From a virus: a stretch of DNA of 64,000 nucleotides. Below, piece by piece: positions 4,888 to 28,398 of this stretch. The stretch's first letter is position 1, and each line of letters starts with the position of its first letter. The stretch is taken from IMG/VR virus record IMGVR_UViG_3300027668_002455, positions 111,850 through 175,849 of that record. One strand, written 5' to 3'. The translations under genes and the position numbers were made by a program. The notes under the pieces were generated by a model that ran no database searches, was not told the DNA's origin, and worked only from the letters and a program-made list of their open reading frames with translations.

Positions 4888-4891
4888 CATT

Positions 4892-6100
4892 ATGGCTGAA
4901 GAATTTGTTAATCCTAAAAATGATAGCGGTGGCGCGGTGATTTCAAAATCACAGGCGCAAACGGCCATGAAGAACTTGCAGGCGGAAGCCACCTCTTTAT
5001 CGCCCACTGCTTTAATAGAATTATTTGAAATAGATTTAAGTGATATACTTAGTCCTGATAAACTAATAGATCGAGAAGAATTTAATGCATTAAATGTATT
5101 TCTGGGAGGCTCGCTAGAAGTGAATATACATAATCCCGAAATAAATTTATTTAGATTTCATAATAACTTAAAATTAATTTCAAGAAATATTTGGTTTCAA
5201 GATAACCTATATAAAGCTATACCCATACAAGCGGATGGCTTTGAAATGAACTCTAATGGTGTAGCCGCTACCCCCAAGCTAAGCTTAAGTGTTAGCACGG
5301 AAAAAAGTCCACCTCAATTTGCTATTTTTAAACATCTTCTTAAAGATCTTAATGATCTAGTGGGCGCTCGGGTAAACCGTATAAGAACTTTTGCAAAGTT
5401 TTTAGATTATAAAAATTGGTATGAATTAAAAGCAGACGGAACTCCCGATCTAAATAAAAGACTATATGAAGATATTCCTAAGAATATTGCTCCAGATGAA
5501 GGCTCTTATTTCCCCCCGGATGTTTTTTATATAGATAGAAAATCACACGAAGATAAATCATCTATCCAATTTGAATTAGCTTCTTTTATTAATTTTGAAG
5601 AGCTTCAAATTCCACAAAGAATTTTTAACGTGACCCGATGTCCATGGACGTACCGGGGACAGGGGTGTACTTACGAGTATTCCAGCATGGTAAGGGCACA
5701 ACGAACTTCAGAGCCATTTCAGATGTTTTACAAGACGATGATACCAACAAACGCTCCTCCTATAGCTACAGAAAATAATGAAACTATTTCAAGCATTGTA
5801 GAGGGATACACCCCCGAAACAACAAATACCCCCGTGCCGTGGGAGCCGGCTCTTAAATATCCCAAAAAAAGCACTGTCTATGTAACCCATAACAAAATAA
5901 ATTATTATTTTGTTTCGTCCGCAGATGTACCCGAAAACACACCACCCCCTGATAAAGATTATTGGGTAGCAGATGTGTGTGCAAAAGATCTGGGGGCATG
6001 TAAGTTAAGGTGGGACAAGAAACTCAACACTGCCCTACAAGGAAGCCCATATGGCGCCGCAATTCCTTTTGGCGGTTTTCCAGCAATTAAGCGTCAGTAA
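4892..6100 (+). CDS. Minor tail protein, lambda gpL-like (tail tip, 4 conserved Cys)
   Basis: IELFEIDL, PIQADGFE, DLVGARVNRIRTFAKFLD, CPWTYRGQGC, DVCAKDLGACKLRW, PFGGFP. Confidence 0.9.
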   Translation: MAEEFVNPKNDSGGAVISKSQAQTAMKNLQAEATSLSPTALIELFEIDLSDILSPDKLIDREEFNALNVFLGGSLEVNIHNPEINLFRFHNNLKLISRNIWFQDNLYKAIPIQADGFEMNSNGVAATPKLSLSVSTEKSPPQFAIFKHLLKDLNDLVGARVNRIRTFAKFLDYKNWYELKADGTPDLNKRLYEDIPKNIAPDEGSYFPPDVFYIDRKSHEDKSSIQFELASFINFEELQIPQRIFNVTRCPWTYRGQGCTYEYSSMVRAQRTSEPFQMFYKTMIPTNAPPIATENNETISSIVEGYTPETTNTPVPWEPALKYPKKSTVYVTHNKINYYFVSSADVPENTPPPDKDYWVADVCAKDLGACKLRWDKKLNTALQGSPYGAAIPFGGFPAIKRQ

Positions 6101-6101
6101 A

Positions 6102-6854
6102 ATGATACTCACAAAAAAAAATAAAGAGAAAATAAAAAAACATGCCCGCGAGGAAAGCCCCCGGGAATGTTGCGGGGTATTAGTGTCTACTAACAAGGGT
6201 ACTGAAGCGCACCCGTGCATTAATACCTCTTCTTTGCCTGAGTCTAATTTTAGAGTTTCTCCACGAGATTATATAAAATTTTCTAATTATGGAAAAATAG
6301 AAGCCATCTATCATTCTCACCCGTCAGGGAAAGGAGGCTTCTCCTTGGGAGATCAACAAAATTATACAGTAAATAAAGAAAGATTTATATTATATAATAT
6401 AGAAAGTGATGAATTTTTTGATTCACTAGAAGAAGGGGCATCTCCTTACTTAGGGAGAGACTTCGAACTTGGAAAAACGGATTGTATAAATATAGTTATA
6501 GACTATTATTTAAATGAACTTAAAATAAAAAGCAACTACGACGAATGTTGGCCCGGACCAAAACACTATATTAAGAAAAACGGTTCCTCCAATGTAAAAA
6601 AAGTTGTTCGTTCAATTGAAAAAGTATGGAGTGTAGGACGTATTAAAAAATCAGAAACTCCGCGCAAACATGATATTATTTTGTATAAGGCTGACGGCAT
6701 AAGGTCGGAAGTAGGGCTGCATTTAGGCGTTTGTATAGGCCACGGAAAAATTATTATTCAACCAGTTGATAAAAAATCATGCCTAATTGATTATGAAGGA
6801 TTTCTAAAGAAAAAAACAATTATGATATTTAGACCAAATTCTGCAAATGAATAA
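6102..6854 (+). CDS. Tail assembly protein, lambda gpK-like (JAB/MPN + NlpC/P60)
   Basis: HAREESPRECCG, YHSHP...S..D, G.TDC, H.GVCIG. Confidence 0.9.
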   Translation: MILTKKNKEKIKKHAREESPRECCGVLVSTNKGTEAHPCINTSSLPESNFRVSPRDYIKFSNYGKIEAIYHSHPSGKGGFSLGDQQNYTVNKERFILYNIESDEFFDSLEEGASPYLGRDFELGKTDCINIVIDYYLNELKIKSNYDECWPGPKHYIKKNGSSNVKKVVRSIEKVWSVGRIKKSETPRKHDIILYKADGIRSEVGLHLGVCIGHGKIIIQPVDKKSCLIDYEGFLKKKTIMIFRPNSANE

Positions 6855-7644: not shown

Positions 7645-7673
7645 ACTAAAAAATATAATAAGGAATTTAACAA

Positions 7674-13600: not shown

Positions 13601-16304
13601 TTTGGCAGGTATTAGAGCTAACGGAGTTCGGGAACAAGAAATAACAGCATTTGGTTGCACTTCTCGTGGTCAAGCTATTAGGCTGGGTAAGTGGTTGGTT
13701 TATACAAATAATCTTGAAATAGAAAATGTATCTTTTAAAGCTGGCGTGGAGGCTAGTTATTTGCGTCCGGGAGATACCATATCCATATCTGATAATAACC
13801 GAAACCCATTCCGATGGGGAGGGCGAACAACAGTTATTTCAGGCGCAGACACGACTACGAATACACCCGAAACTATTCAGTTAGATTCCTTTTTGGACCC
13901 CGAATACATTAATAATGATCAAGTATACAAGTTATCCCTTATAACCCCCGGATGGAATTATGATAGTTACAATGTAAGCGGACTGAACTCCGACGACACC
14001 CCGGACATCAGGCGTAGTCAGGTGCAGGATTTTTTAATTAGCGGTAGCTTTATTGATATGGGTTTAGATTTAGAAACTACTGCTCCTCCAAAATTTAGCA
14101 CAATAAAATTAGGGGGTGCCACCGCAGTTCATTGGCCAGCATGGCTAGCTGGCGGTTTTGACGGCTCTACAAAAAATATTAACAGATCTGATTATACTGT
14201 AGGTAACAATCAGATTTGGACAATTAACCCAACAGGTAAAGAATTTGCCCTCGGAAGCTCTTTTGATGCATCTACTACTAAAGAGAAGCTTTTTCGAATA
14301 GTAGACGTAAAAGAAGATGAGAAACAAGTATTCTCGATTAAGGCTGTTGAAAATAACCCCATAAAATATGATAGAATAGAAGATGATTTATTATTCGAGC
14401 AGGCTGGGTTATATAACTCGCCCACACTAAAAGTTCCGGATGGACCCACGAGCCTCGCTCTTAAGATAGATCAATTTTCCCCAAATTCAGCACAAGTTAA
14501 ATATTCTATTGGGGCCCCAACCAGCAAAAATGGTTTAGACGCTTATCAGGTATTTGCAAAAGAAAATTCTCCTTTCTTTAGCATCTCAGACTTTACTGGA
14601 AATTACCCGGTGCTGTGGACACAGTATACCGGAGGATCACTAAGTGGACGGGCGTTTATAGATAATACCCCCCTTACAAAAGTAGTCTCTTCAGGTACCC
14701 AATATATCCCTGATAATGAACATAGAATCACCAGAATTCCAGCCCTAGCTCAGGCGCAAGGAATATTCAGACCTGAGCAATCAGGATCATGTCTATTTAA
14801 AGTATTTTCTGTGAATAACATGAATCAATACTCCTTGTCTTCTAGGTCCGAGAGGATAATCGTTCCCACGATTCACCCTATTGAAGATGTTGAGGTAGAA
14901 AACCTTGGACTATCAACCAATGAAGGTAGTCTTATAACGGCTGAAAAAAAGAAAAAACCAAGAATCGAATTTACTGGAGGTAGCCCAACTATACTTTGGA
15001 CATCGACACTAGCTGCGTCCGGGTTTGTACCAAGCTCCTATGCGTACAGACTTACGGTTAGAGAGCCTTCTGAAGGTACTCCCATTCCGAATCCAAACAT
15101 TATCCATGAGATAACAGGATACAAGTCCGCTGACCGAGCGGCGACAAACTTAAGTGGATTTGCATTTACTTATGATTTAACAGGAAATTTATTTTATGCT
15201 TCTGGGAGGCGGACTTTTGACATCGTAGTAGAAGCTCATAATGAATATGGTGAAAGCTCTGCGGGCGGTAAATTTGGGTACAGCCTAGATCCAAGCGCAC
15301 AGCCCTATACTGACAGTTCGGGGAATCTTATTACTGAAACTTATACAAAATTAGATTCTCATTATACCAACATATATGGGTATGATATAGTCAGGCTAAA
15401 TAATCCCCCCGTTCATGCCCACCTATCAAGCGACGGGGATGTTTGTGCTCCTAGTGATGATATTTGCACTACCCAGCAAATCACATTAGATAATAAAGTT
15501 AAAATGGTTTTTGAAAAAAATAGCCCCCAGAGTTTTAATAGGGATGTAGCTGGTGGATTTTTATACGTTTCCCCTCAGTATTTTGACGTTACTGGGGTAC
15601 AGGGTGTTCTTCAAAATGACTTGCGCCATGACATTCAAAGAATAAAATTTGATTATGCTCCGACCATTGAAGTTACCCCTACTGGGAATCTTTTACTAGA
15701 TGGTTCGGCTTATATGGCTTACAGCCTTTATGATACCTTTGATCAAGAGAGAGACATCGCGTATCGTACTAATACAAAAAATAATCCAATCAAAAATAGA
15801 GGCTTTGATATGGCTAGAATGTTATCTGTAAGCTCTGTTCGTGAAGTTAAACTCGACGACACAAACACAGTAAGAAAGATTATTAAACAGGGAAATCAAA
15901 CCCTCACGTTTACCCTACCAGCCCAACGCCAATGGCACTTCCTTAAGATAGAGGGATCTCTCCAAGGGGAGAGGACCTTGTATACTAACGCTGAGTCTCA
16001 AAATGAGAAATGGCAGGAATTAAGTGAACTCAAAAATTGGAAAGTTTATGTTAATGACATCAGGGTAGATCAAGCTGAAAACTGGGCTTCTAATCCGCCC
16101 TCGGATAAAAACTTTGTATTTTGTAAAAATTCAAAATGGAATGGATCAACAGATTTATTGCCAGTATTTAATATACTTTCTAAAGGCGTTCCGCTTGAAC
16201 AATTTAATAGAGACACAACCCTTACGGTTAAGCTAGAATTTGAAGGGACTAATGTGGAATTTATTAACTTCAGCGCTGAAGCTGATTATGGAAGAAGGTA
16301 TTAG
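7674..16304 (+). CDS. Host-specificity/central tail fibre protein, lambda gpJ-like, with inserted LamG/ConA-like, SPRY-like and carbohydrate-binding-like domains
   Basis: DLIAEGPIEG, YLNDTPV, YPNS, RVRVPSNYNP, WTDNPAWCFLDMITNDRYGLG, AFGCTSRGQAIRLGKW, LRPGD. Insert has repeated T(V/F)ExW...WxH(V/I)A...G(Y)IDE motifs. Confidence 0.9.
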   Translation: MANAEPGIIVDGIKKKSISNIETIDLIAEGPIEGPVKQEYDYVGTLGATGWDTVNAQPEKNFLSSLYLNDTPVMDEQGLYNFQNIEVAITKGQPNGGIGNAQYFNDWDMHEAGVDYWKGNSPASFNINVSPDTEQNPEQYQNCELTKVINPNPRSVSTYRQKQAVLSLGSGYPERSSSAAYGEYSVKMPPSAALVVRDPVLGDDLYNFWPRQGGFVATEEEDYTPEEIIEAQNKQAFTFEAQVQGSDSNGPQVLAGKGNPNYPGGWVLMMVPSNEALDDDGNFYFKVTFINNNISLDTGHVMQFGVWSHVAVCLSERAVKIFINGVEQTGGGKNYPNIKLSSPTDLFLGRHPDGSTNPLRNVFLDNICMSNRAKYATNFTPGKVEPNDSTLFLIDGEDWRFEGEVPIIPQDDSIEINTMLRGTLVNDQRFVLQSNQILKDLNTAANATFYDFSCVNAKLLKNNTPQYDTTITDPGGGSTPSIYFDGTEGLANEGTLQNTSRMVDSLTPHAEVFLNPNYYNYTTNGSREWLFETWIYPASMSNGDEQFVAGLMRGDGTSAPWMLTTKHESGATKIYWSCVDITDESVKQLSGSISTASWNHVQVIYNGSYCRLFVDGIQVDTRGIIPSHETLNEDTRFCIARSHPNVIMDSFKGYIFNARILGGESIAPVETGNTSVWRKITAMGPSVPTAAFTSTTNCKLLLHSNTTDGSTTFTDSTGNYSIGRFGNAVNSTTKKKFGTSSIYFDGWNDGGELASSLYIDTTAGQLGVGVYTVEMWFNTSKSGLQYLISRNSSQQYGGLCISPESNYIQWGGNCTGPVLHASGVTINLNTWHHVAVVSNGKGNSAHIYFDGVQVGHTSSWDNWGYPTASHRITIGAQTYNGARPRYLFEGYIDEIRWSDVPRYSPQENYATLSSTDFAGCGVLGDGNLSFTDASGHCAARSTQTIAPGKGKIYFEVLCIDAASIWSSPPAIGVMGVGSPISRQLDASPSRWVRGNGYKYSNGSEIAAGYSTWSNGDIIGVEIDSTAGTFKFRINNGSWTTAFTDLGDTTWIPTIKIAETSIKLTVNFGQDYYFAGGKPSGQDTSQTQFYYAPPSDAVALSLLTVGQATVSSSRPGQVFALQSDAEDGTTEFTDLSSYRNAITANGSVENSTDVNNQAGNQESSVFFNKAAGTFLSSTAAKDGANFNNDDWTVELWVRPDHALGSTAECFMSCGGGTANWNSSTGHSWAITNYANKIYWQWNTTGSGFGEIYTSNTAVPANEWTHIAMVNQSGTKRLYIGGVQKGEDTTEKTTTSMPTMLSFGQTSVLNEGPFGGYINNASIQRDYCKYPDGATFLPSTARLVGYWSSGATWMNRQYGPGEGTNGQPYFTPNTSQFIGNITVANDGELVIQKDFIGTGKLLKVTRPEDSIEVERSGGLNVHVIQWGSGKPYPTYGTHYPWNDTINKNRPGIDESTWVPGDYGDLDGTSFSSHRGNYIRGHVANTPVVETEHLIKKRFFVQKVPLKGGENYTISCRSYRATNTSQGNAGFKFVAWLDSGSGPYAESSTFTPIAEKLSSVDESQNAMSYTFTAPPGTMESWIGVELLHGNSTLYFDKVTLESSKGFPLTKAKAIKERLRGPTVDGSGNPTGDNYSVDMFAKKYRIVNKHCVGAEVHLKIDALYNSVKSSGDLIDASINNIVVKFRPLIHNGTSAYKDAYDQQITGRADVPFLWVFDLDFKEVISSFSASDRNNFYGWEIKIYRTEPEVTVTNIKKSTTVDVLVEKYDTAAAYPNSSVIRQRFNAAYFNSIPSRSVDVRLLRVRVPSNYNPIKKTYDESQGPWDGTWKTQKYWTDNPAWCFLDMITNDRYGLGRYIPLDGFDKWTLYKIAQYCDVIVPDGAGGMEPRLTLNTIITSREDAFKVINDMASVFRGLLYYAAGQIYAIQDSKKDPIYTFTNANAQDGNFTYSNKSRKERYNVGIIRYNDKTNFYKPAIEYVEDLAGIRANGVREQEITAFGCTSRGQAIRLGKWLVYTNNLEIENVSFKAGVEASYLRPGDTISISDNNRNPFRWGGRTTVISGADTTTNTPETIQLDSFLDPEYINNDQVYKLSLITPGWNYDSYNVSGLNSDDTPDIRRSQVQDFLISGSFIDMGLDLETTAPPKFSTIKLGGATAVHWPAWLAGGFDGSTKNINRSDYTVGNNQIWTINPTGKEFALGSSFDASTTKEKLFRIVDVKEDEKQVFSIKAVENNPIKYDRIEDDLLFEQAGLYNSPTLKVPDGPTSLALKIDQFSPNSAQVKYSIGAPTSKNGLDAYQVFAKENSPFFSISDFTGNYPVLWTQYTGGSLSGRAFIDNTPLTKVVSSGTQYIPDNEHRITRIPALAQAQGIFRPEQSGSCLFKVFSVNNMNQYSLSSRSERIIVPTIHPIEDVEVENLGLSTNEGSLITAEKKKKPRIEFTGGSPTILWTSTLAASGFVPSSYAYRLTVREPSEGTPIPNPNIIHEITGYKSADRAATNLSGFAFTYDLTGNLFYASGRRTFDIVVEAHNEYGESSAGGKFGYSLDPSAQPYTDSSGNLITETYTKLDSHYTNIYGYDIVRLNNPPVHAHLSSDGDVCAPSDDICTTQQITLDNKVKMVFEKNSPQSFNRDVAGGFLYVSPQYFDVTGVQGVLQNDLRHDIQRIKFDYAPTIEVTPTGNLLLDGSAYMAYSLYDTFDQERDIAYRTNTKNNPIKNRGFDMARMLSVSSVREVKLDDTNTVRKIIKQGNQTLTFTLPAQRQWHFLKIEGSLQGERTLYTNAESQNEKWQELSELKNWKVYVNDIRVDQAENWASNPPSDKNFVFCKNSKWNGSTDLLPVFNILSKGVPLEQFNRDTTLTVKLEFEGTNVEFINFSAEADYGRRY

Positions 16305-19300
16305 CTTCTCTTTTCGCTGTAGAGAAGACCACCGGGGCGTTTTTGGTAAACAATCTCCTGTACCACTGCGCCTTTAATTCTAACGCCAAGCTCTTTATTG
16401 CGCTCGTTTTCCTCTAATCCGCCCTGTGTATTTTGATCCTTTTCGCCGAGTGCTGTCCTTCCGTCGTCACTACCGCCACCCTCATTGGTAACATTAACAT
16501 TGATAGTAAAGTCATTATTAACTGAGGAAGCGCTTCCGCCGCCAGAAGAAGGTGTCTCACCCCCGCCTCGTGGACCTACGTAGCCGCCCTCGGCAAAGTG
16601 CTGTACTTCTCCTTTATTTAATTTGTTCATGAAACCCATACCATACAAGTCTACGGTTTCCTTGGGAACCACCCACTCCCCGGCTGTTAGCATGGCGGGA
16701 ACCGTGTCCCGGCCCCTTGTGTGTGCAGGTCCCCCAGCAGCCACGTGCATCGTATCGTGATCCTGCCTAAATAACTTCAGCCTTGACGCATCGATCATTG
16801 TCTTCGGTCTCGTAATTCCGCCACCGCCGTCACCTTTCGTTAAGTTACTGGTTGCGCCCAAGATATTCACATCGCCTAAGCCGCCCTTTTTGCCCGTGCC
16901 CCCAGCTTTCTTCGATGGTGTCGTCAAGGGGCTGCCATAATTCGCTCCCGGTTGAAAACCTAACAATTGTTGTAGAAAGTTTTGTTTGGGAGTTCTGTCC
17001 TTTGTGAATTGCTTAAGCATAGCTTGATCCTGCATCTGCTCCATTACTCTATCAGCCCGGGCAACTTTATCCGACCCGTACACGCCTCCGCCGGGTGCCG
17101 TAGCAGGAAACCCTGTAGTCTTAGCCATCTGCATGTCCCGCACGCCTTGTGCCTTGTACTGCTGGACTTCTATCTGCGCAGGCGTACCCCCAATCGAACT
17201 GACGGGCGCACTGCTTATCGCCTGTGCCCAACCGCTACTGCCGGGTTTAATGACTTTTCCGCCTTTCGTTAGGACCTCGCCCGACTTGAGTGGCTTGCCC
17301 GTTTTCGGGTTCTTCGCCTTGGGCGAGGAACCCATTGACTGCATTCCAGCCTGAATGCCCACCATTGCAATTTGCATAACTGCGCTTTGAATGATCTTCC
17401 TTCTTTGGGTCTTGTATGCCATCATGGCATTTTTCTTCATTTCATCATCGGCGGCTTTGTCTTTGAGGTATTGATCAAGGGTAGCTTCTCTAGAGAATTT
17501 ATATGCATTTTGCGGATTGCTGCTATCCATCTGTCCGAGGGCCGACAGCCTAGAATCAACATTAAACGACCCCGCCGTAGGTTTCTTTGGGTCATTCCAG
17601 TCGTAGGTGTTTTGAAGGTTACTCCGCGCAGAATCAGCCGACCCACCAGCTGCAAATTTATTAACTCTTCCTGCATTTAGATCGTTTAGATAATTAGTTC
17701 CATATTTGCGAGCAGATGATTCTTTTATGACATACTCTCCACGTCCCAATCTGGCGGGAATGTCATCTACACCACCCTTACCGCCCGACACTAGACCACC
17801 CTTCTGGAAAGTCTGGACACCCCGTATGCCGCCTACGACATGACCGCCTGTGGCAGCACCCGGAGCACCGGGTTGAGGTATTAAAGCTTTTCCAACAGCA
17901 TTAAAAGCAGTATTAACGAGGCTACTAATGGAGGTGCTGAGCATATCAGCAGCTATATCCTGCATTACCTTGGCCATCGCCTCCCTGAAGGTCATGGTGC
18001 CATTAATGGCAGCAGCAAAAGCGTCTTTTACGCCATCCTTGAATGCCTTACCATTCCGATCAATCATTTTGATAAAATCTTTTTGGGCCGCATTTTTTTC
18101 TAGATGAGTTAGAGCCATAAGGGTGCTTTTAAGTGCGCTGTTAAAATCCCCCGCGCTCATGTCACCCTCCATCATGGTTTCAGCTAGCGCCCTCATGCCT
18201 GACTCGTACTCCGCCTGTGCGATGGTTCCGTCAGCGAGTGCTAGATTAAGTCTTTCTTGCTCCATTGGAGCACGCGCTTTCGCCATTCTGATCTCAGCTT
18301 GATTGGCATTAATCTGCCCATCTTTTAGCTGATTAAGAATATCGACCCTCTTTTTATCTAATTCAATCGAGTCGTTTTCAAGTTTATTAAGATTTTGTTT
18401 AGTCAGTGCCATCCCCATTGCGCGCCGAGCACCAATATCCGTATTGTCAGCCTCCATACCAGCGTTCATTGCACCAAGTTTGGTGTTAAGACTCGCGCCA
18501 AACGCGCCCTTTACTTCGCCCTCCCGCTTATCCCGCATTCGGCCAGCGTCCTTATAGATATTGAGGGGGTTGTACACGTCATCATTACTAAGGTTGTCCA
18601 GTGTCGTCTGTACATTGTCATAAGTGCTGCCGCCTTTGAGCATTTTTGCATTGTTTCGGTCAACTTCATCCTGTTTTAGTTTTTTCGGATCATAGGATCC
18701 CAGCATACCTAATTCGCGATTTAGTTTTGCTGTTGCGTGTGTCGCTTCTTTTGTCTTCTCACTAAGTAGGAAGTTAGCAGTCGCTTGGGTGATTATCCCG
18801 TTGGAAACTTTTTGCGCAATTTCTGTTCTGTATAGATCAAGTTCGTTATTTTTCTCAATAGCAGCGGCTAAGTCCCCAGTAACTTTATAGTATTCCACGG
18901 CAGCTGCTTTTTGTGACTCTATGACTTGTGCGTTGGCAGCATTAAGACTACCGATTAAAGCCGAACCAAGTTTTTTAGTTACTTCGCTGCTCCTCATCGC
19001 GCGTACCGCCTCGTTACCCACATCTCCTAAGGCTGCGACATAGCCCTTTAAACTTTCCCCCGCCTGCCTAGTTCCGTCTTCTACGCCTTCTTGCAAAAAT
19101 TTAGTAATATCGCTTTTAAATTGATCTGGGTCTAAAAAGCCTTTTTCGCGTTTGGATTTTTTCACTGCCTCTTGTGCTTTTCTCATCGCCTCAGCCAACT
19201 CTGTGATGTCGTCACCCGCGATTTCTCCATCCGCAGCGACACTCCTTAGTACAGTACCCAAGTTGCTCATCGCGTTCGTAGCCACTTCACCCTCAATACC

Positions 19301-22300
19301 ATATTTCGACATCTGTAACCTTAGGTCCTGCATCGAGGAGGAGGTCTCAAGGATTACGTCTCTTGCATCGATACTACCCTTAATTGCCGCAGACTCTTTA
19401 TCCCTAGCCTCAGAAAGTTTGAGCAATTGGTCGATTTGTTTGGTTAAATCAACCTCGGTCTTTTTACCCTTAGCATCATTGACTAGCGCATCCATGGTTT
19501 TCGAAATACCATTTTGTACTTCTTCAAAATTTTTCCTGCCAGCCGTGAATGACGACATATTAATGGTATCTTGGAAGAGCATTATTTCTTTTCGAGCTTG
19601 CTTAAGCTTCTCTGCCATAAGTGCAGGGTCTATATCTTTTAAATCAAGATCTTGTCCTTTCTGATTTTTAAACAATGAGTCACTCAGCTCTGTCATGAAT
19701 TTTTCAACTTTTTCCCGTTCTTTGTCGGGTAAAGATCTATTCGACCCACTAAAATCTTGGACAGCCTTCGCTATATTCTCCATATTAGCCGCACGACTTG
19801 GAGCAGCGATTGTCTCGACCTTGTCCCGAGCTCTTCCCGCTTGAACCGGGTTCAGTGGATTACCGTCCCCAAAGGGTGCGGACGTCTCACCCAAGGATAT
19901 CATCTGTGCCTTAGTCTTTATCTCTTCAAGTGAGTCTTTAAGTTGTTTCATATCTGCGGCAGAAAGTACACCATCATCATCAGTAAGCCTCGTAAGTAGT
20001 TCGTTCATGTCATAAAAGCCATCAACAATCATTTGGTCACCTTCTTTTGTGCCTGCGAAACCCTTAAGATTTGACATCTCGCCAAACGCCTTGCTGATCA
20101 TCGTCGTCATCGACCCTACATTTTCCCTGCTCTTCTCCATGCCCCCCTTATCCAGCTGGTTGAGCGCTGTAGTCAACTTACCTAGACTAGTTGTATTGTT
20201 CTGAAGTTCGGTTTTTAGCTGACCGATTTCTTTATTATATTGTGTGATCGCCTTCTCCTGCGAGGCCTTCGCCCTTTCCAGATTCGCAATACTCTTCTCG
20301 GCAGCTACTCTCTTTTTGGTGGCTTCATCCGCAGCGCGCTGCCAAGTTGATTCATTCGCCAACATAGCATCATACTCTCGAGTGTTCTCACGCTTGTTAC
20401 TCGGAAAATCGGGCTTTCCCGCTCTGAAGGCCTCCTCGTACATTGGTGTACCGTATTTGTGGCCCGCCGGCAGTGCTTTGCCCTCCTCGGGTGTTCGCCC
20501 CCAGCGACCAGTGTCCTTGTCACCGATCCAAGTCCCTCCTCTGGCATTCTTTTCAAAAGCTTCGCGGGCTGCCCTTGTTGTTTCTTTATTTTTCAGTGAA
20601 GTTTCTTCGTTTTGTTTCAAAAGAGCCAACCCCTCAATAGTTTTAGTAAGGGCGGCACTGGTTCTGGCAAAGGCTTCTGCCGCGACGCCGCGGGCGTGCT
20701 CGCGCCCTTTTAAAGTTTGCGCGATTTTGTCCCCTTCGGCTCCCCCTCCAGCATATTGTTTTTGTAATCTTTGAAGTTCCTTTGACTGTTCACTCCCGGC
20801 TGAGAAAGCTGCCATTGGATTACCCAAACCCCTTCTCGCTGCCCAATTGGCTCTGGGTTGCCCGGGGATGCTACCGCCCCCACCAAAGCCCGGGCCGCGA
20901 TCACCACCGACGCCGCCCTGCGCGCCAATGGGCAGCCCGGTGACAGGGTCAGTTCCCCCTCCCCCTTCTTTACCAGCATCCTGCCAATTTGCAATAAACA
21001 CCTTTAAGTTGTTTTTGCCATCAAATGAGAATCTCTCGTTTTGAGAAAACAGATCTTTTATCTCTCTGTCAGGTTTAATTAAATTTTTAGCTTGAGTTCT
21101 TGAAATGTCTTCTAGTTTTTTGTTGCTGAAGATTTGCTCCGACGACCCACCGAGCATTTTATCTAAGAATAACCTATGATTCTTTTGAAGTTGCTGGGTT
21201 AAGGGTTCAACATAGGCATTAGCGGGGTTATTGCCACCGGGGTCGGTAAGGCTTCTGAGCATTTTAAGATTGGCTATCATGCCGCTCGTTTGTAAATCCC
21301 TGCCCGAATCCCCAAGCATATTTCCTTGTTTATAATTTAATTTGTTAGATTCCCAGTCTTTAAAAGCTTTGATGGGGGCTCCGGCAGCGCCCCCGATACC
21401 ACCTGCAAAACTTATTTGCTGAGCTAATTTCAACTGAGCCGTAGCAGCTACTTTCATCGCTTTCGCGTAGTCCATCTCTGCCTTCTGCTTAGCCCTCATC
21501 ACTGTAATTTCTCGAGATGTTGCGGAAGTGAGGTCCTCTAACGCTTCCCGATGCTTCTTCATATTAGCGACAACAACTCTATTCTCCGCACCACCGGCGG
21601 GGCCCTTTGCCATTTTAATGGCATCAGCGATAGCCTTGTCTGCCCCTGATAAATCTGCATTTCTTATTGCTTCAAAAAATGCTGGGCCAAACTTTTTATT
21701 TATTTGGTTCTGAAAGTCTTTACCCATGAAGCCGCCCTTCTGAGGAGTAAGCTTTTCAGTCCCCCTTACCTTACTAAGAAGATGTGTTTCGAGATCCGAC
21801 ATTAGAGCTTCTTGTTTTTTAACCTGAAGGTCATTTAGCTCGTTCGCATGTTTTATTCTGAGCCTGCGCTCTTCTGAAGCGGCGTTAAATTCTATTAGCG
21901 TTCGTTCTGAAGCTGTTTTAGAAAGATTATCTACTAGAGTCTTAGTTCCAAGGTCAAACATCTTAAGAGTCTGATCTTCGAAAAGTTTAGTTAGTGATTT
22001 TTTTAATGTTATTTGATTTTTAAGACCCTTAAGGTTGTTTTTGAATTTTTGAATTTCGTCATGAAGAAGACTAGTTTCCTTCGCAAATGCATCCTCTTCT
22101 TTAATCAAGCCCTCTTCCATAGTGGCCCGCCGCTTTAAAATTGGAAGTAATTTTCCATTGATGATCATGTGCAATCTCATGAAGTCATCTTCATCTAGAT
22201 TAACTTTTTGATCCATTTCCTTGAGTGATTCGAGAAGATCCTTCTGCTCTGCTGAAAGACCGTCAAGGGAAGAGAGTTGTGCCACCACCTTCCTATTGTA

Positions 22301-25300
22301 GGCTTGCGCTTCATCTTGGGAGATATTATACTCATCTGAGAGACTCTTACCACTGTCCTTCAAATTAGTAAACTCCTTCAACATTTCTCTAGCCTTCTTC
22401 TGACCCACACCATCCAGCATACTTGCAAACCCCTGTGCCGCCTTAGCCATGTTTTCTGCAGAGGTATCCTTTGAATATAGCATACCTTGATTTTGAGCGA
22501 AGGCATCTAGTGCCGTTGCTGAAGCCCCTGCCCCTTGGGCCATTTGATTAAATCTCGATGCGGCACTTTTTATAGCTGCATTAAGCTCTCGAATATCTTC
22601 TACACTCGTATTAACATCTTGGATTTTTGAAATAACCTCGGCCTTGGTGTTTAACTTATCTTTGCCAACAGTAACACCACCACTCCTCTTCATTGTGTCG
22701 CCAATGCCGGCGAGATTCAGGCTTCTGATTATGTCATTCTTTGCAGCCGCGACCCCAGCCGCGTCCCCTTTACCAAGGGCTTTACCAAACGCAGAGGTTG
22801 CCTCACTGGCTTTGGACATGTGTTCATTAAGATTTTTAAAAGACTCGGCAGATTTTTTTGCAGCCTCTTGTACTCGTTTACGGGCAGCCGCTCCCTTTGC
22901 GTCATAAGCCCCCTGCATTAGCTTATTAACCCCGATTCCAACCGCCGCTACTGCGAGAGCAATTGCAACCGCTGGGTTAGCCGCTGCTGCGGCATACGCA
23001 GCGCGCCCGCCACGTGCAATTCCGCCGCCCATCCTAGCTCCCAGACCCTTCGTGCCACCCCCCTTATTAGCTTTAAAACGCATATCCGGCTTTCCGGACT
23101 TAGTAAGAGGCCCACTGAAGGCACTTTTTCCCATACTGACTTTCGCAGAGGCGATGACGCTTTTAGTCCATACAGCCAACCCTGCGATGCTGGCGCTAAT
23201 CCCTGTACCAAGTTTACTAAGAGCGCCCAATATTCCCCCGTAGCTTTGGGTAGCCATTGCAATCATGGGATAATACATCGCAAAAGAGGCCGATAAATCC
23301 AGTACACTGCTACTAAATGTAGAGACACCCTCATTTGTCTCTTTTAGTCTATCACTCATGACGCTCAGTTGACTACCGACCATCATCATGCCCATTGACA
23401 TGCCCATGCCCATATCATCGCCGCCACCTTGTTTTTTCTGTGCAAAGTTAGGAATATAACCATCCGCTTTTCCCTGTCTTTGGATGCTTTTCATGGTCGC
23501 ACCGGAAGCTAGATGCATATTAATTGCATTACCTAGTGAACCCTCTTTGGTATTGTAAACCCCTGTACCGCCGTTCAAGCGATCATCATGACCCACGCGT
23601 ACCTGATCTCTTCTTACTCCAGCGCGGTCTTCTCTATCTATAGCTGCTCCAAGCCCTCCAAGTGCGAAGTTTGGAATAAAACCTCCCGCCTTGGTTTTTT
23701 TGGACAGGAGCCCTGTATCGGCTCTTGCAGACGTATTGTTTGTCGGCCTAGAAATTAAGCTCTCAAACTCAATCTTATTCCGACGAAGCCCGTCAACAAC
23801 AACTTCCTTTGGCATACTGCCTACCATACCTTGAAGCTGTTTTAAGCTTCTAAATTTTTTCTCTGGCCCCACTTCAGGCATTGAGAAGATGCCAGATGTG
23901 ACCATGTTCGGTCTCATTCTGTGTCGAAGCTGGGGAAACGCAACTTTACTCATCCCTTCGAAAGGTGACATGCGGCCTAATAATTCAGATTTTCTTTTCT
24001 CAGGTGACTGCGAAGGGAGACCGGCCCAAAGTTGATTGATTAACTGGCTTGAATATATTGGTTTGCCTGTCTCTTGGCTGACATTAGCTAACTCTTTAAA
24101 TTGTTGAAATCCCCTTCCTTTTTGTTTTGACATGTTATATTGAATCTGAAGGGCCTCCTGCCCGGCAAGCCCTGAAGAACGCGAGTGCATCTTGCCCGAT
24201 GTGTAATCCATCCTCCCACCCTCATCACCACCAATATACTTCATGCCCCCGCGCTCGCCATCATCCCAACGCCGCAAGCCCGGTGCTAGCTTGTTCTTAT
24301 TGAGCGTCTTAGCTAGGTGAGCCCTCTGTTTCTCCGCCCAAGGGTTACCTCTTGGGGCCATAAAATTAGGAACAAAACCGAGTGCCGAAATTGCCTTCTG
24401 CATTCTAGTCGCCGTACTCAGCTTTTGTTTTTGAGTCATTTTCCGCGCACCAGACGAACCGGGTCCAGCCTTCAGATTTTTTCCAAGCCCGGGTAACTCT
24501 GTCGCGAACCTCGCCCCCAGCCCCATATCATCAAGAAGACCCTCGGTATATGCCTTATTTATAAGACTTTGCTTGGCCTCACCCGTAGCTGACCTTTTTG
24601 CATCAGCCTTCTTTAATTGGGAACCGAATTTAAAAGTTTTTATAAATTTAGAGTTTGCTTTCTCCCCTCTCCCCTCTTCAAAATCAAACGGAGCCTTAAA
24701 GCTTCCGCCCGCCTCCGATAGCTCATCTAGCTGCCCGGGGGTATTGGTGGCAATCCTTGCTAGATTTTCAAATATGTCTCCCTCCGTACCGGGGGATAAA
24801 AAGGCATTTGATTTTTTAAGTGAATCTACTAGCCCTTTCTTGTCTTTAAGTCTGCCTTTATGGTTAAGTCCTGTATGCTTAAGAAACTGCTCAGTTAAAC
24901 TTACCATTGGCCCTGCCATGTGATCTGAGATTTGTTGAGAAAACTTTTTCGAAGTTTCATCTCCTTTTTTTGGCATACTTTGAAGAGAGCTTATCTGCAA
25001 ACCTGTAAATTTTATCGAATCATTTGATAAATCATTACTCTTCATTAGGTCCGAAAGTGCAGGTATTTTCTTAATCGGCAGTTGAGCGTGGTCTGACTTA
25101 TTCGGCGTTCCATAATAAGATAAAAGACCTATTGCTCCCTGCGTATTATATGTATGTATATTTCGGGGATTTTTGGGCTCTCTGCCAGCCTTAGATTCTT
25201 TTATATTTTTTTGTGTACCATAACTATAACCCTGACCCGACGCCACATGACTAGGGTCGAGTTTTCCCTCATTTATTTTTCGAGTAATAGTGGATTGAGA

Positions 25301-27304
25301 CATAGACCCTTTGCCCATTATGCCTGCCCCTAGCGATGTAAGTTTTAAGTTAGCAAAATTCGGAACAAATCCACCCGCAGAATTATAAGGGTCATACCCA
25401 TGTACACCCTTAAATGAGTCTCTGTAATTATTGCCCGCAGAAGACGTTCGTGGTGGCATAATGCCCGGCTGTTGTAATCCCGGAAATTTCTTTATTTCTT
25501 CATTACCATTATAAGTAACTTTTCCTACCCCCGGAATGGTGGCTTCTTTTATTTTGCCCGCTTGGTAGCCGCCAGCTTTCGCGAGCCTTTTTTCTTGAAC
25601 TTCTTGACTAAAGTTAGGAACAAATCCAGAAGCAGCGCCCATATTGAAGCTGGGAATAAAACCGCCTGCCTTGGGTTTTTTGCCCCCCGTTCTCTTTGCG
25701 CCCCCCTGCATTGCTAATACCGCTGGCGCAGCCTTTTGTGCAGCCAGCGTAAGTTTTTCCATTTCTGCTCTAGATTCTTTAATTTTCTGAGCCAACACAC
25801 GAGCGACTGCCACCATCCCCTCTTCTGAAGCTGTGGCTTGATTAATAAGCGCGGGGCGTTGAGCTAAAATATTTTGAATTATATTTTGTGTACTTGCTAG
25901 TTTTTGGGAAGCAGTTTCCATTCCCATGAAACCCGCAGCAGCGTCTTTGACAAATACTGCTAACTTAGCTCCTATTTTGACAAGCACAAAACCAAGCAAT
26001 GCTAGCCCCGGACCGCTTATGATTTTCCCCATGCCCTCATACACAGCGGTACCAACTGTTTCACCCAAACCAAAAAAGTTTTTAGGGCTTATCAAATCAG
26101 CAAAGCCATTTACCATTTTAAGAATTCTATCTAAAGCGGGTTTAACAGTAAGGGCACCTACCTCTGTTGCAAACTTGGTTAAATTAACCATCGTTTTATT
26201 TACCATACCTTCAGTGGTAGAAGTCAAAAGTCCCATGCGTTGAGTAGCTTCATTAGTAGTTTCATTGGCTACCATTAATGCTTTTTGATATTTTCCTGTC
26301 TCATTAGCTAGTTCAGGCAGAACAGCTTTTAAAACGTTTACCTGAAAAACACCCGCTAACATTTCAGAAGAGGTAGCTCTAAGTGATGGAGCTAGTGAAC
26401 CATAAACTTTTGCATAGTTTTCTAAAACTTTCATAGCAGGAAGTAGCTCCCCGCTTGTTTTTCGTACAGCCACGCCAAGAGATTCTAGTTGACGCAGGGT
26501 TTCTGGTCTCTGAATCCTCGTAAAAATAGTTTTAAAGCTATTACCAATAACCGCACCACCCCGAGCAGTCTTTTCTTGAGCGGTGGTTACAATCGAAATC
26601 AATTCCTCGAAACTAACATTCGCACTATTAGCCGCAGCACCCGTCCTTTTGATAGCTTCTGCCAAATCACCAGAGCTAACAGCAAATTTAGCATCTACCT
26701 GAGCCATCTTATTAACAATCTGCGTTGAGTTACCAGCAGCTTTACCAAAGGTGTTTATGGCGGCGGTTAGTGATTCCGTTGCATTTTTAACATCCATACC
26801 ACCTAATTTTGCAAGGGTCATGGCGGCGGTTGTTCTTTTTAGTGACTGTTCAACATTTAAACCCTGCCTAGCAAATTCTTCCGCAGATTCAGCAACCTCA
26901 TAAAAACTATGCCCCGTGGCTTTGGCAGCCTTGAAAAGTCCATTTGAAAATCTTTCGAAATCTTTACCGGTGGCATTCAGAAGGACTTGAATATTTGTGA
27001 GTTGCTGCTCTACTTTGATAGTCGTCTTAACGAGCTCTGACATCGCTTTTTGAACAGCAAAAATAGCACCAGCCGAAGCACCGAATGCAATGACACGAGC
27101 GTTAGAAGCTTCTAGTGATTTATTGAACTCATTTGCCGCCCCAGTAATACGTCCAAGGGGCTGTGTAAAATTCTTGGCAACAATGGGGTTTTTATTGAAG
27201 GACTGAGTTTTATTGAAAAGGGCTTGAAGCTGCTGCTCCGCCTTCCGCATTTCTGAAGCGGGGACGTTGATTCCAATATCAATTGTTGCACTATTCCTAG
27301 CCAT
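16301..27304 (-). CDS. Tape measure protein (TP901-like core), 3667 aa
   Basis: N-terminal EEFARQG...LTAAIN...FAVSSGDLAEAI...TARGGAVIGNSFKTIFTRI; long Ala/Lys coiled coils; two C-terminal D.(I/V)PA.L..GE(Y/W)V motifs; position after tube and chaperones. Confidence 0.92.
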   Translation of the reverse strand: MARNSATIDIGINVPASEMRKAEQQLQALFNKTQSFNKNPIVAKNFTQPLGRITGAANEFNKSLEASNARVIAFGASAGAIFAVQKAMSELVKTTIKVEQQLTNIQVLLNATGKDFERFSNGLFKAAKATGHSFYEVAESAEEFARQGLNVEQSLKRTTAAMTLAKLGGMDVKNATESLTAAINTFGKAAGNSTQIVNKMAQVDAKFAVSSGDLAEAIKRTGAAANSANVSFEELISIVTTAQEKTARGGAVIGNSFKTIFTRIQRPETLRQLESLGVAVRKTSGELLPAMKVLENYAKVYGSLAPSLRATSSEMLAGVFQVNVLKAVLPELANETGKYQKALMVANETTNEATQRMGLLTSTTEGMVNKTMVNLTKFATEVGALTVKPALDRILKMVNGFADLISPKNFFGLGETVGTAVYEGMGKIISGPGLALLGFVLVKIGAKLAVFVKDAAAGFMGMETASQKLASTQNIIQNILAQRPALINQATASEEGMVAVARVLAQKIKESRAEMEKLTLAAQKAAPAVLAMQGGAKRTGGKKPKAGGFIPSFNMGAASGFVPNFSQEVQEKRLAKAGGYQAGKIKEATIPGVGKVTYNGNEEIKKFPGLQQPGIMPPRTSSAGNNYRDSFKGVHGYDPYNSAGGFVPNFANLKLTSLGAGIMGKGSMSQSTITRKINEGKLDPSHVASGQGYSYGTQKNIKESKAGREPKNPRNIHTYNTQGAIGLLSYYGTPNKSDHAQLPIKKIPALSDLMKSNDLSNDSIKFTGLQISSLQSMPKKGDETSKKFSQQISDHMAGPMVSLTEQFLKHTGLNHKGRLKDKKGLVDSLKKSNAFLSPGTEGDIFENLARIATNTPGQLDELSEAGGSFKAPFDFEEGRGEKANSKFIKTFKFGSQLKKADAKRSATGEAKQSLINKAYTEGLLDDMGLGARFATELPGLGKNLKAGPGSSGARKMTQKQKLSTATRMQKAISALGFVPNFMAPRGNPWAEKQRAHLAKTLNKNKLAPGLRRWDDGERGGMKYIGGDEGGRMDYTSGKMHSRSSGLAGQEALQIQYNMSKQKGRGFQQFKELANVSQETGKPIYSSQLINQLWAGLPSQSPEKRKSELLGRMSPFEGMSKVAFPQLRHRMRPNMVTSGIFSMPEVGPEKKFRSLKQLQGMVGSMPKEVVVDGLRRNKIEFESLISRPTNNTSARADTGLLSKKTKAGGFIPNFALGGLGAAIDREDRAGVRRDQVRVGHDDRLNGGTGVYNTKEGSLGNAINMHLASGATMKSIQRQGKADGYIPNFAQKKQGGGDDMGMGMSMGMMMVGSQLSVMSDRLKETNEGVSTFSSSVLDLSASFAMYYPMIAMATQSYGGILGALSKLGTGISASIAGLAVWTKSVIASAKVSMGKSAFSGPLTKSGKPDMRFKANKGGGTKGLGARMGGGIARGGRAAYAAAAANPAVAIALAVAAVGIGVNKLMQGAYDAKGAAARKRVQEAAKKSAESFKNLNEHMSKASEATSAFGKALGKGDAAGVAAAKNDIIRSLNLAGIGDTMKRSGGVTVGKDKLNTKAEVISKIQDVNTSVEDIRELNAAIKSAASRFNQMAQGAGASATALDAFAQNQGMLYSKDTSAENMAKAAQGFASMLDGVGQKKAREMLKEFTNLKDSGKSLSDEYNISQDEAQAYNRKVVAQLSSLDGLSAEQKDLLESLKEMDQKVNLDEDDFMRLHMIINGKLLPILKRRATMEEGLIKEEDAFAKETSLLHDEIQKFKNNLKGLKNQITLKKSLTKLFEDQTLKMFDLGTKTLVDNLSKTASERTLIEFNAASEERRLRIKHANELNDLQVKKQEALMSDLETHLLSKVRGTEKLTPQKGGFMGKDFQNQINKKFGPAFFEAIRNADLSGADKAIADAIKMAKGPAGGAENRVVVANMKKHREALEDLTSATSREITVMRAKQKAEMDYAKAMKVAATAQLKLAQQISFAGGIGGAAGAPIKAFKDWESNKLNYKQGNMLGDSGRDLQTSGMIANLKMLRSLTDPGGNNPANAYVEPLTQQLQKNHRLFLDKMLGGSSEQIFSNKKLEDISRTQAKNLIKPDREIKDLFSQNERFSFDGKNNLKVFIANWQDAGKEGGGGTDPVTGLPIGAQGGVGGDRGPGFGGGGSIPGQPRANWAARRGLGNPMAAFSAGSEQSKELQRLQKQYAGGGAEGDKIAQTLKGREHARGVAAEAFARTSAALTKTIEGLALLKQNEETSLKNKETTRAAREAFEKNARGGTWIGDKDTGRWGRTPEEGKALPAGHKYGTPMYEEAFRAGKPDFPSNKRENTREYDAMLANESTWQRAADEATKKRVAAEKSIANLERAKASQEKAITQYNKEIGQLKTELQNNTTSLGKLTTALNQLDKGGMEKSRENVGSMTTMISKAFGEMSNLKGFAGTKEGDQMIVDGFYDMNELLTRLTDDDGVLSAADMKQLKDSLEEIKTKAQMISLGETSAPFGDGNPLNPVQAGRARDKVETIAAPSRAANMENIAKAVQDFSGSNRSLPDKEREKVEKFMTELSDSLFKNQKGQDLDLKDIDPALMAEKLKQARKEIMLFQDTINMSSFTAGRKNFEEVQNGISKTMDALVNDAKGKKTEVDLTKQIDQLLKLSEARDKESAAIKGSIDARDVILETSSSMQDLRLQMSKYGIEGEVATNAMSNLGTVLRSVAADGEIAGDDITELAEAMRKAQEAVKKSKREKGFLDPDQFKSDITKFLQEGVEDGTRQAGESLKGYVAALGDVGNEAVRAMRSSEVTKKLGSALIGSLNAANAQVIESQKAAAVEYYKVTGDLAAAIEKNNELDLYRTEIAQKVSNGIITQATANFLLSEKTKEATHATAKLNRELGMLGSYDPKKLKQDEVDRNNAKMLKGGSTYDNVQTTLDNLSNDDVYNPLNIYKDAGRMRDKREGEVKGAFGASLNTKLGAMNAGMEADNTDIGARRAMGMALTKQNLNKLENDSIELDKKRVDILNQLKDGQINANQAEIRMAKARAPMEQERLNLALADGTIAQAEYESGMRALAETMMEGDMSAGDFNSALKSTLMALTHLEKNAAQKDFIKMIDRNGKAFKDGVKDAFAAAINGTMTFREAMAKVMQDIAADMLSTSISSLVNTAFNAVGKALIPQPGAPGAATGGHVVGGIRGVQTFQKGGLVSGGKGGVDDIPARLGRGEYVIKESSARKYGTNYLNDLNAGRVNKFAAGGSADSARSNLQNTYDWNDPKKPTAGSFNVDSRLSALGQMDSSNPQNAYKFSREATLDQYLKDKAADDEMKKNAMMAYKTQRRKIIQSAVMQIAMVGIQAGMQSMGSSPKAKNPKTGKPLKSGEVLTKGGKVIKPGSSGWAQAISSAPVSSIGGTPAQIEVQQYKAQGVRDMQMAKTTGFPATAPGGGVYGSDKVARADRVMEQMQDQAMLKQFTKDRTPKQNFLQQLLGFQPGANYGSPLTTPSKKAGGTGKKGGLGDVNILGATSNLTKGDGGGGITRPKTMIDASRLKLFRQDHDTMHVAAGGPAHTRGRDTVPAMLTAGEWVVPKETVDLYGMGFMNKLNKGEVQHFAEGGYVGPRGGGETPSSGGGSASSVNNDFTINVNVTNEGGGSDDGRTALGEKDQNTQGGLEENERNKELGVRIKGAVVQEIVYQKRPGGLLYSEKRS

Positions 27305-27342: not shown

Positions 27343-28350
27343 CTATTCGCCGTGTAATTTTATTAAGTCATCCATGTCCAAATGACCGCCCTTTTCAGCA
27401 GCAGCTTTGGCTAAGGATACGCCTCCATCCGGTGCACCAGATGTAAGACCCATGCGCTTCATGTCTTCCTGTGTGGCACCCACTACGGTAGTAGCCGAAG
27501 ATTCGTCCATTTTTTGCTTTATTTTGTCACTGTTTTTACTGACATTGAATAAGTCAATTAGCTTATCTGGATCTGACATCGTTTCTGGGTCTGGGTCATG
27601 TTTAAGCTCAGAAAGTATATGTTTAAAGTATTTACCGAAACTAAAGAGTTCGTTTTGATTAAATGTTAATTCCACAACAGGTCTTCCATAAAAAATAAAT
27701 GGATTGTCCTCACATAAATAAAAAGAATTAAGAAAAAATCCCGAAAGAGCAACCCTTTTAAGGTTGTGGTCAGAATACATCTCAGAAAGGACGTTGTAAT
27801 TAGCAATTAATAAAAGGATATCTTTTTCATGAATTTCCTCGAAAACTTCTGCACTAAAAAGTGGCACCTTGCATTCTGCGTCTTTATAAGAGGTTGTATA
27901 TATAAAAAATTCATTTACTTTTTTTGTAGCATAAGACTCTACCGTGTATCCGACTAACTCGAGTTTCTCTGAAGCGATCTCTGCATGTTCTTGTTGTACA
28001 TCATTAATCTGCTTCTGAATAGAGTCCATATCAGCCTGCAATATGAATTTAGATTTTGTTATCTTTAAGGCTGATGCTTGTTGTAAGCACTCTTTTATTC
28101 GAGTATCTTTTTCAGAAGACCACAAACCTTCCTTTTCTAGATCTTTTAGTTTTTCCTCTTCAGTTGGAAGACCCTTACTTTTTGCATGATTTTCATATTC
28201 TTTTTTTCTTTCATCAATCTCCTCTGAAGAGAAGAGATCTATATGTTTTAGATAAAAGGTGCCAAATTTTTCTAAATAAGATTTATTATACCCACGGATT
28301 ACATCCATGTATACTCCTCTTAATAGATGTGGTTCAATTTTTTTAGACAT
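27343..28350 (-). CDS. Probable tail assembly chaperone (gpT position)
   Basis: Helical, acidic protein immediately upstream of the tape measure; synteny only. Confidence 0.5.
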   Translation of the reverse strand: MSKKIEPHLLRGVYMDVIRGYNKSYLEKFGTFYLKHIDLFSSEEIDERKKEYENHAKSKGLPTEEEKLKDLEKEGLWSSEKDTRIKECLQQASALKITKSKFILQADMDSIQKQINDVQQEHAEIASEKLELVGYTVESYATKKVNEFFIYTTSYKDAECKVPLFSAEVFEEIHEKDILLLIANYNVLSEMYSDHNLKRVALSGFFLNSFYLCEDNPFIFYGRPVVELTFNQNELFSFGKYFKHILSELKHDPDPETMSDPDKLIDLFNVSKNSDKIKQKMDESSATTVVGATQEDMKRMGLTSGAPDGGVSLAKAAAEKGGHLDMDDLIKLHGE

Positions 28351-28353
28351 TAC

Positions 28354-28380
28354 AAAAAAGGCCCCATTTTCATGGGGCCC
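28354..28380 (-). terminator. Intrinsic terminator between the two chaperone-like genes
   Basis: Minus strand GGCCCCAT-GAAA-ATGGGGCC-TTTTTT. Confidence 0.75.
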
Positions 28381-28398
28381 GTGTGTTCTTTTTATAAC

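Follow-up and report, generated by a model that had tools for sequence, protein, structure and literature searches.

The tape measure protein (TMP) studied here most probably carries a soluble array of four modules, A-B-C-D, placed between two hydrophobic segments, in which each module would fold independently and is fenced by copies of a short junction peptide, A-x-G-[FY]-[IV]-P-N-F. The architecture and the modularity of the array are near certain, and the same holds for the conclusion that the DNA coding for the motif is a place where related phages gain or lose modules. As related phages gain and lose modules at this peptide, the molecular ruler of the tail may also carry enzymes into the host.

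The protein (P0001) is encoded by one open reading frame in the window, the whole stretch of 64,000 nt of DNA that was analysed:

16301..27304, minus strand: TMP gene (P0001), one ORF of 3,667 aa
26363..26926, minus strand: PhageMin_Tail domain (PF10145, detected with Pfam), TMP aa 127-314

On sequence evidence, ORF 16301-27304 is a TMP of the TP901 family, with a PF10145 match at aa 127-314 (E=2e-28, 100 bits vs a cutoff of 33.2) and matches to seven PHROG TMP families at aa ~12-536. Homologs of the lambda proteins gpM, gpL, gpK, gpI and gpJ (the last with 2,876 aa) are encoded at 4357-16304 on the plus strand, converging on the stop of the TMP gene, which lies on the opposite strand, and the large terminase gene is located at 49176-50987. 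Altogether, the TMP, the lambda-type tail tip genes and the large terminase indicate that the window is part of the genome of an uncultured siphophage. The contig from which the TMP is recorded has 175,849 bp. INPHARED returned no match (tblastn with the array, megablast with 20 kb), and hence no cultured relative is known. With regard to the host, a scan of species genomes gave only eight loci, every one of them in MAGs of mixed taxa. Pfam detected nothing besides PF10145 in the whole TMP. Searched C-terminal to the array, the family profile matched only coiled-coil proteins and the Douge TMP in the PDB, and a PDB sequence search with the TMP's own C-terminus gave no match.

The junction peptide and its flanking segments

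P0001 contains six in-frame copies of A-x-G-[FY]-[IV]-P-[NS]-F, detected by pattern scan:

25646..25663, minus strand: junction motif 1, GFIPSF, aa 548-553 (pLDDT <50)
25610..25627, minus strand: junction motif 2, GFVPNF, aa 560-565 (edge of a stretch with pLDDT <50)
25355..25372, minus strand: junction motif 3, GFVPNF, aa 645-650 (pLDDT ~60; site of a one-module indel)
24362..24379, minus strand: junction motif 4, GFVPNF, aa 976-981 (pLDDT <50 in both models)
23666..23683, minus strand: junction motif 5, GFIPNF, aa 1208-1213 (pLDDT <50)
23444..23461, minus strand: junction motif 6, GYIPNF, aa 1282-1287 (pLDDT <50)

The composition of 120 homologs predicts ~0.0004 occurrences of G[FY][IV]P[NS]F for a protein as long as P0001 and 0.03 for the 120 proteins together, where 422 copies were observed. 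The motif was not found elsewhere in the six frames of the 64,000-nt window. A search with aa 540-1300 against 5.8 billion protein clusters retrieved 192 near-length giant TMPs of 2,000-5,250 aa, metagenomic without exception. Among the matches listed, all 120 giant TMPs contain the motif (1-21 copies under the strict pattern, typically four), and it is always localized between modules. The logo of 482 copies reads [AK]-[AS]-x-G-F-[VI]-P-N-F-[AS], with conservation of 100% for G and P, 97% for N and 99% for F/Y. A full-text search of the literature gave no paper on the motif, the strings matching only an unrelated human proteomics paper.

AlphaFold models were obtained for aa 540-981 (pLDDT 72) and aa 970-1300 (pLDDT 71) from the window fragment aligned with full-length homologs, and both consist of compact domains of the alpha/beta type. 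All motif copies but one fall within, or border on, stretches with pLDDT <50 (for motif 2, the means of the 10-residue blocks are 37 and 62); the exception is motif 3, at ~60. These low values suggest that the peptide is an exposed linker element and not part of a domain core. An earlier note, made from the DNA letters and their translated reading frames, had placed six motifs in this region, had described a non-coiled-coil stretch of ~750 aa and had read the motif as a cleavage or linker signal. The six copies are all present in frame in the minus-strand ORF at those places, the stretch (aa 548-1287) was modelled as alpha/beta domains joined by low-confidence linkers, and the conservation of the peptide between modules across relatives agrees with a boundary role.

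According to Kyte-Doolittle profiles, the strongest hydrophobic stretches of P0001 flank the array on both sides:

25925..26035, minus strand: hydrophobic segment upstream of the array, aa ~424-460 (Kyte-Doolittle peak)
22928..22984, minus strand: hydrophobic segment downstream of the array, aa 1441-1459 (Kyte-Doolittle score 2.01)

A hydrophobic peak occurs within 170 aa upstream of the array in 104/120 homologs and within 300 aa downstream of it in 81/120, and inside the array in only 7/120. This distribution, with peaks that flank the array and rarely fall inside it, suggests that the array is a soluble insertion between two putative membrane segments.

The modules and their exchange among relatives

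The modules were defined by cutting the homologs at the motifs and clustering the resulting pieces (501 segments from 138 proteins), which produced 120 clusters, 82 of them singletons. P0001 has the following modules:

25373..25609, minus strand: module A, 79 aa (aa 566-644), opening module of arrays
24380..25354, minus strand: module B, 325 aa (aa 651-975), putative TMP-specific domain with a nuclease-like residue set
24545..24793, minus strand: conserved core of module B, aa 838-920 (E846, D874, D901, K903, K917), from the alignment of 94 relatives
23684..24361, minus strand: module C, 226 aa (aa 982-1207), rare accessory module
23738..24250, minus strand: predicted GNAT-fold core of module C, aa 1019-1189 (AlphaFold model)
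23462..23665, minus strand: module D, 68 aa (aa 1214-1281), closing module of arrays

Across the 138 proteins, arrays usually open with A and close with D. Module A is present in 109/138 proteins and is the first module in most arrays; module D is present in 99/138 and is the last one in most arrays; B occurs in 94/138. The architecture A-B-D was found in 64/138 proteins, and the array of P0037 reaches 22 modules. The constant core of this TMP family consists of A, B and D, leaving C as the sole accessory module of P0001 (A-B-C-D). Module A was modelled by AlphaFold as a small alpha/beta domain (pLDDT 80-88) for which no fold match was obtained, and module D was modelled with pLDDT 64-75, likewise without an assigned fold. 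A relationship between A and D, based on a shared G-x-G-x-x-YN-x-x-E, was unsupported (hhalign probability 13%), as was a relationship of either module to the C-terminal D-x-[IV]-P-A-x-L-x-x-G-E units.

Module B combines a strongly conserved residue set with a divergent sequence, as the 94 B modules show a median identity of 20% to that of P0001. E846, D874 and K903 are kept in 94/94 modules and K917 in 93/94, while position 901 carries D in 79 of them and E in the other 15, and the order of these residues follows the classical E...D...(D/E)xK pattern. Two B subfamilies align over exactly the conserved core (hhalign probability 96%) and have the residue set in common. In the model (pLDDT 72), E846 is in a helix and D901/K903 in a strand, and the D874 region is a low-confidence coil. 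No nuclease fold was retrieved for B by the structure searches (Foldseek PDB, VIA wide, VIA second look and BFVD), which are weakened by the multi-domain nature of the 442-aa model. B gave no Pfam match at E<=0.1 and no PDB sequence or profile match, nor was a stand-alone B homolog of 178-569 aa found. The chances that B possesses a real PD-(D/E)xK-type active site appear slightly better than even.

Module C is rare, with only 18 relatives among 1.8 billion representatives, most of them between motifs and a few as stand-alone ORFs. Its core (aa 1019-1189) was modelled mostly with pLDDT >90, and Foldseek with this module gave weak matches that were yet enriched in GNATs. The stretch K1060-Q-K-G1063-R-G1065 follows a strand (1050-1058) and begins a helix (1064-1079), being localized at the beta4-alpha3 junction as is GNAT motif A, (Q/R)-x-x-G-x-(G/A). 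G1063 is kept in 20/20 C relatives and G1065 in 15/20; the first position of motif A is K or S, not Q/R, and the best-conserved residues (FPQLRHR, TSG) are not classical GNAT motifs. P0001 has no Pfam GNAT match, Pfam detected nothing in short proteins carrying module C, and a PDB sequence search with modules C+D gave no match. In another relative, P0119, a different inter-motif module matches the GNAT family PF00583, marginally but reaching the Pfam threshold; apart from this match, Pfam found nothing besides PF10145 in five module-rich relatives. Module C and the GNAT module of P0119 look alike by eye (KG-x-G ... FPQL), and homology between them was not significant by BLASTP or hhalign.

Both enzyme likenesses had been proposed in the earlier note. 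The GNAT-like reading of 23684-24361 holds, in that SKQKGRGFQQF is found there, at the beta4-alpha3 junction, and the GNAT fold predicted by the model is accepted for module C. The PD-(D/E)xK reading of B stands in part: GDIFE, PFDF and ADAKRS are present in 24380-25354 and the residue set is kept in 94/94 modules, but the nuclease fold was unconfirmed.

The closest relative, P0002, illustrates how modules are exchanged. This protein has the architecture A-Y-B-C-D and is 93% identical to P0001 over aa 1-655, with DNA ~95% identical around the junction. The two differ at motif 3 by a 249-nt indel that corresponds exactly to module Y (77 aa) plus one motif and is flanked by direct repeats, TTTGTTCCGAATTT, made of motif DNA and identical over 14 nt. 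In P0012 this Y recurs, together with a near-identical D, after an unrelated module X. In addition, a search with the module C profile detected copies in other TMPs, each bracketed by motifs and some of them in tandem (three in P0137). Natural genes split at the motif were also looked for and none was found; the short matches look like fragmented ORF calls.

The motifs had previously been suggested to bracket swappable effectors, a proposal to be examined by comparing homologous TMPs for variable domains between conserved motifs. Variable modules were indeed found by this comparison, since relatives carry differing modules (120 clusters, 82 singletons), but A, B and D do not follow the proposal as they form a constant core. 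The idea of a magazine of exchangeable effectors suits the family more than it suits P0001, a modest example in which one accessory GNAT-like module joins three core modules.

Proposed processing and alternative readings

TMPs are expelled into the envelope at infection, and this makes their fate relevant to any module that they carry. [quoted passage not shown] T5 pb2 is converted into pb2* and pb2C by a cut after R1127, between a hydrophobic stretch and the enzymatic domain (Linares et al., 2023, PMC10038345), and its sequence at this site is ...NSFVPR|AEGG.... According to the available text of a study on Thermus phage P23-45, gp96 is a 5,002-aa TMP fused to a virion RNA polymerase (PMC10770324). 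From the resemblance to the T5 pb2 cut site, the precedent of gp96 and the expulsion of TMPs, we infer that the junction peptide is most likely a processing site.

The proposed mechanism is as follows. A and D are fixed bookends of the array, B is a near-universal, TMP-specific domain with a nuclease-type residue set, and C is an accessory domain with a predicted GNAT fold. The junction peptide would be processed in a manner similar to the SFVPR|A cut of T5 pb2, freeing the modules after tail assembly or ejection. Once free, the GNAT module would act on targets in the host, as B possibly would too. A candidate for the processing enzyme is encoded among the tail genes:

6051..6854, plus strand: gpK-like tail protein with a JAB metallopeptidase domain (phrog_30; PF14464 Prok-JAB, E=8e-9)

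This protein is a candidate by context only. Taken as a whole, the combination of a motif-fenced array, processing and host-acting modules is the best explanation, and it is held at about even chances; cleavage at the motif and delivery of the modules into the host, which are argued by analogy, may be placed at even chances or slightly below. In its broadest form, the proposal would make the peptide a universal cut signal throughout a large clade of uncultured, long-tailed phages of aquatic habitats, acting autocatalytically at the invariant Asn or via a tail or host protease, and the TMP a magazine of exchangeable enzymes (AcrVA5-like acetyltransferases, a TMP-specific nuclease) released ahead of the DNA; this extension is speculative and rather doubtful.

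Alternatively, the junction peptide could be a docking motif and not a cut site, the array remaining covalently linked and looped between two membrane-inserting segments. Possible partners include the tail assembly chaperone and the tube lumen or, on the host side, a chaperone or prolyl isomerase by which the ejected modules are refolded. The motif has the character of a linear, exposed peptide in which G, P and N are invariant and aromatics flank them. Hydrophobic segments flank the array in most relatives, and TMPs are considered to cross the envelope via two transmembrane regions (PMC13033339). Moreover, the HK97 TMP reportedly requires a periplasmic chaperone (Cumby et al., 2015, as cited in PMC13033339), and the P23-45 enzyme was proposed, in the available text of that study, to act while fused to the TMP (PMC10770324). 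However, the number of motif copies ranges from 1 to 22, without a fixed stoichiometry, the motif is confined to the TMP within the window, and the T5 cut site resembles it. Docking is considered unlikely, although it is the main rival reading.

It can also be hypothesized that the array is purely structural, serving as a plug, a spacer or a holder of the leading DNA end, with B derived from a nuclease fold and binding DNA ends, and with no host role for the enzyme likenesses. This would agree with the constancy of A, B and D in the family, with the failure to find a stand-alone relative of B in the range of 178-569 aa, with the absence of any enzyme family recognised by Pfam in P0001 and with the position of the N-terminal part of the TMP, which in tails of the lambda type adjoins the DNA end (cited in the available text of PMC13033339). 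Conversely, the retention of the full E/D/(D/E)xK set in 94/94 modules at a median identity of 20% suggests that catalysis or metal binding has been retained, the accessory modules are highly diverse and swapped, and a GNAT fold in one accessory module together with a Pfam GNAT match in another relative is hard to explain on structural grounds alone. A purely structural array is, on this evidence, improbable.

That the motif is kept mainly as a DNA recombination site for in-frame cassette exchange, with a functionless peptide, would account for the 14-nt identical direct repeats of motif DNA that bound the indel between close relatives, but it is highly improbable, as the six copies of P0001 differ at synonymous positions and the peptide hardly varies among TMPs with only ~20-30% identity elsewhere, both of which indicate that selection acts on the amino acids.

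Comparison with known systems

Processing at the junction peptide, the reading preferred here, finds its closest parallel in T5 pb2, a TMP with an embedded enzymatic domain. The layout with a hydrophobic stretch ahead of the site is present in both proteins, and the core [GS]-F-V-P is common to the T5 site and the junction peptide. The T5 site has an Arg whereas the junction peptide has an invariant Asn, and pb2, unlike P0001, has one site and one C-terminal peptidoglycan-hydrolase domain, without a repeated motif, an array or module exchange. P23-45 gp96 is likewise a giant TMP, and its N-terminal part is an enzyme that acts in the cytoplasm and is thought to enter with the TMP; in contrast to P0001, it is a single large enzyme without a repeated junction peptide or a cassette array, and processing is not reported in the available text (PMC10770324).

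Polyvalent proteins of phages and conjugative elements are large multi-domain proteins for which transfer along with the DNA is predicted (Iyer et al., 2017, PMC5512222). Conflict domains such as GNATs and nucleases occur together in them, and cleavage into parts is a frequent prediction (PMC5512222). P0001 has four modules, one with a predicted GNAT fold and one nuclease-like, of which only one is accessory. The hub domain of polyvalent proteins is a zincin-like peptidase, and Pfam detects none in P0001; the paper that describes these proteins contains no mention of tape measure proteins and no conserved junction peptide (PMC5512222). The Sle1-type effectors of actinobacterial contractile injection systems, which are TMP-related, resemble P0001 in that a modular scaffold related to TMPs bears exchangeable functional domains and is ejected by a tail-like machine (PMC13277306, available text). 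They differ from it as they are cargo of an injection system and not a phage ruler, and as their variable C-terminal domain is a single one; the available text of that report describes no repeated motif (PMC13277306).

The junction peptide provides a concrete and testable candidate for the rules of TMP processing, and the arrays point to unexplored enzymes that may counter host defences as well as to a natural cassette system. A few TMPs are known to carry one enzyme, a peptidoglycan hydrolase in the case of T5 and an RNA polymerase in that of P23-45. The searchable literature appears to contain no description of a TMP with a cassette array fenced by a motif, and a junction peptide that fences exchangeable modules would represent a new organising principle for proteins delivered by virions.

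Tail gene order and neighbouring genes

The tail tip genes, encoding homologues of the lambda-type proteins gpM, L, K and I, and a gpJ homologue of 2,876 aa (4357-16304, + strand), lie on the strand opposite to that of the head, tail and tape measure protein (TMP) genes. This block converges on the TMP gene (16301-27304, - strand), with the stop codons of the two overlapping (4 nt). Convergent tail tip genes on the opposite strand are an unusual layout for a tail module. Two ORFs, separated by 48 nt, are found at the other end of the TMP gene.

27343-29400, - strand: two ORFs of 335 and 333 aa, directly upstream of the TMP gene

This position is the usual site of tail assembly chaperones; both ORFs are far above the usual size of such proteins, and neither matched any family. 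The 333-aa ORF ends in a proline-rich tail with a weak extensin-like match. Elsewhere, the large terminase gene (49176-50987) has a gene for a nuclease homologue immediately downstream, and no tRNA genes were found by ARAGORN across the whole 64 kb (1-64000).

50987-51961, - strand: ERCC4-type nuclease homologue (phrog_3490, E=3e-14)

Stand-alone ORFs carrying the module C domain

The GNAT-like domain of TMP module C is also present in four stand-alone ORFs of 281-460 aa (P0128, P0129, P0133 and P0136; e.g., L012:367-1521), seen without gene context on short contigs. All four have a Gly/Ala-rich, hydrophobic C-terminus, the N-terminus is proline-rich in three, and in three of the four the canonical junction motif gives way to a peptide of the form x-[IL]-P-x-W.

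Interrupted TMP gene in the closest relative, and the C-terminal units

In the closest relative, the TMP gene is split by an in-frame TAG (L013:10567-10569, contig ERZ26051151 ctg167910). The alignment with the window TMP continues unbroken across the TAG, at 87% identity over aa 1460-3435; therefore, P0002 (2,522 aa) and the ORF that comes after it represent a single TMP, and the break between them may be due to a stop, to an error in sequencing or to read-through.

The C-terminal part of the window TMP contains two units with the pattern G-G...D-x-[IV]-P-A-x-L-x-x-G-E-[YW]-V, and after each of them comes F-A-x-G-G.

17726-17761, - strand: C-terminal unit, aa 3182-3193
16667-16702, - strand: C-terminal unit, aa 3535-3546

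The C-terminal unit is the only part whose family profile matches a solved TMP: mycobacteriophage Douge gp16 (8zdo), residues 1410-1462 (E=2e-13). Just past its cut site, the T5 TMP (AEGGMMYPG...GEHGTEVV) is similar by eye to this unit.
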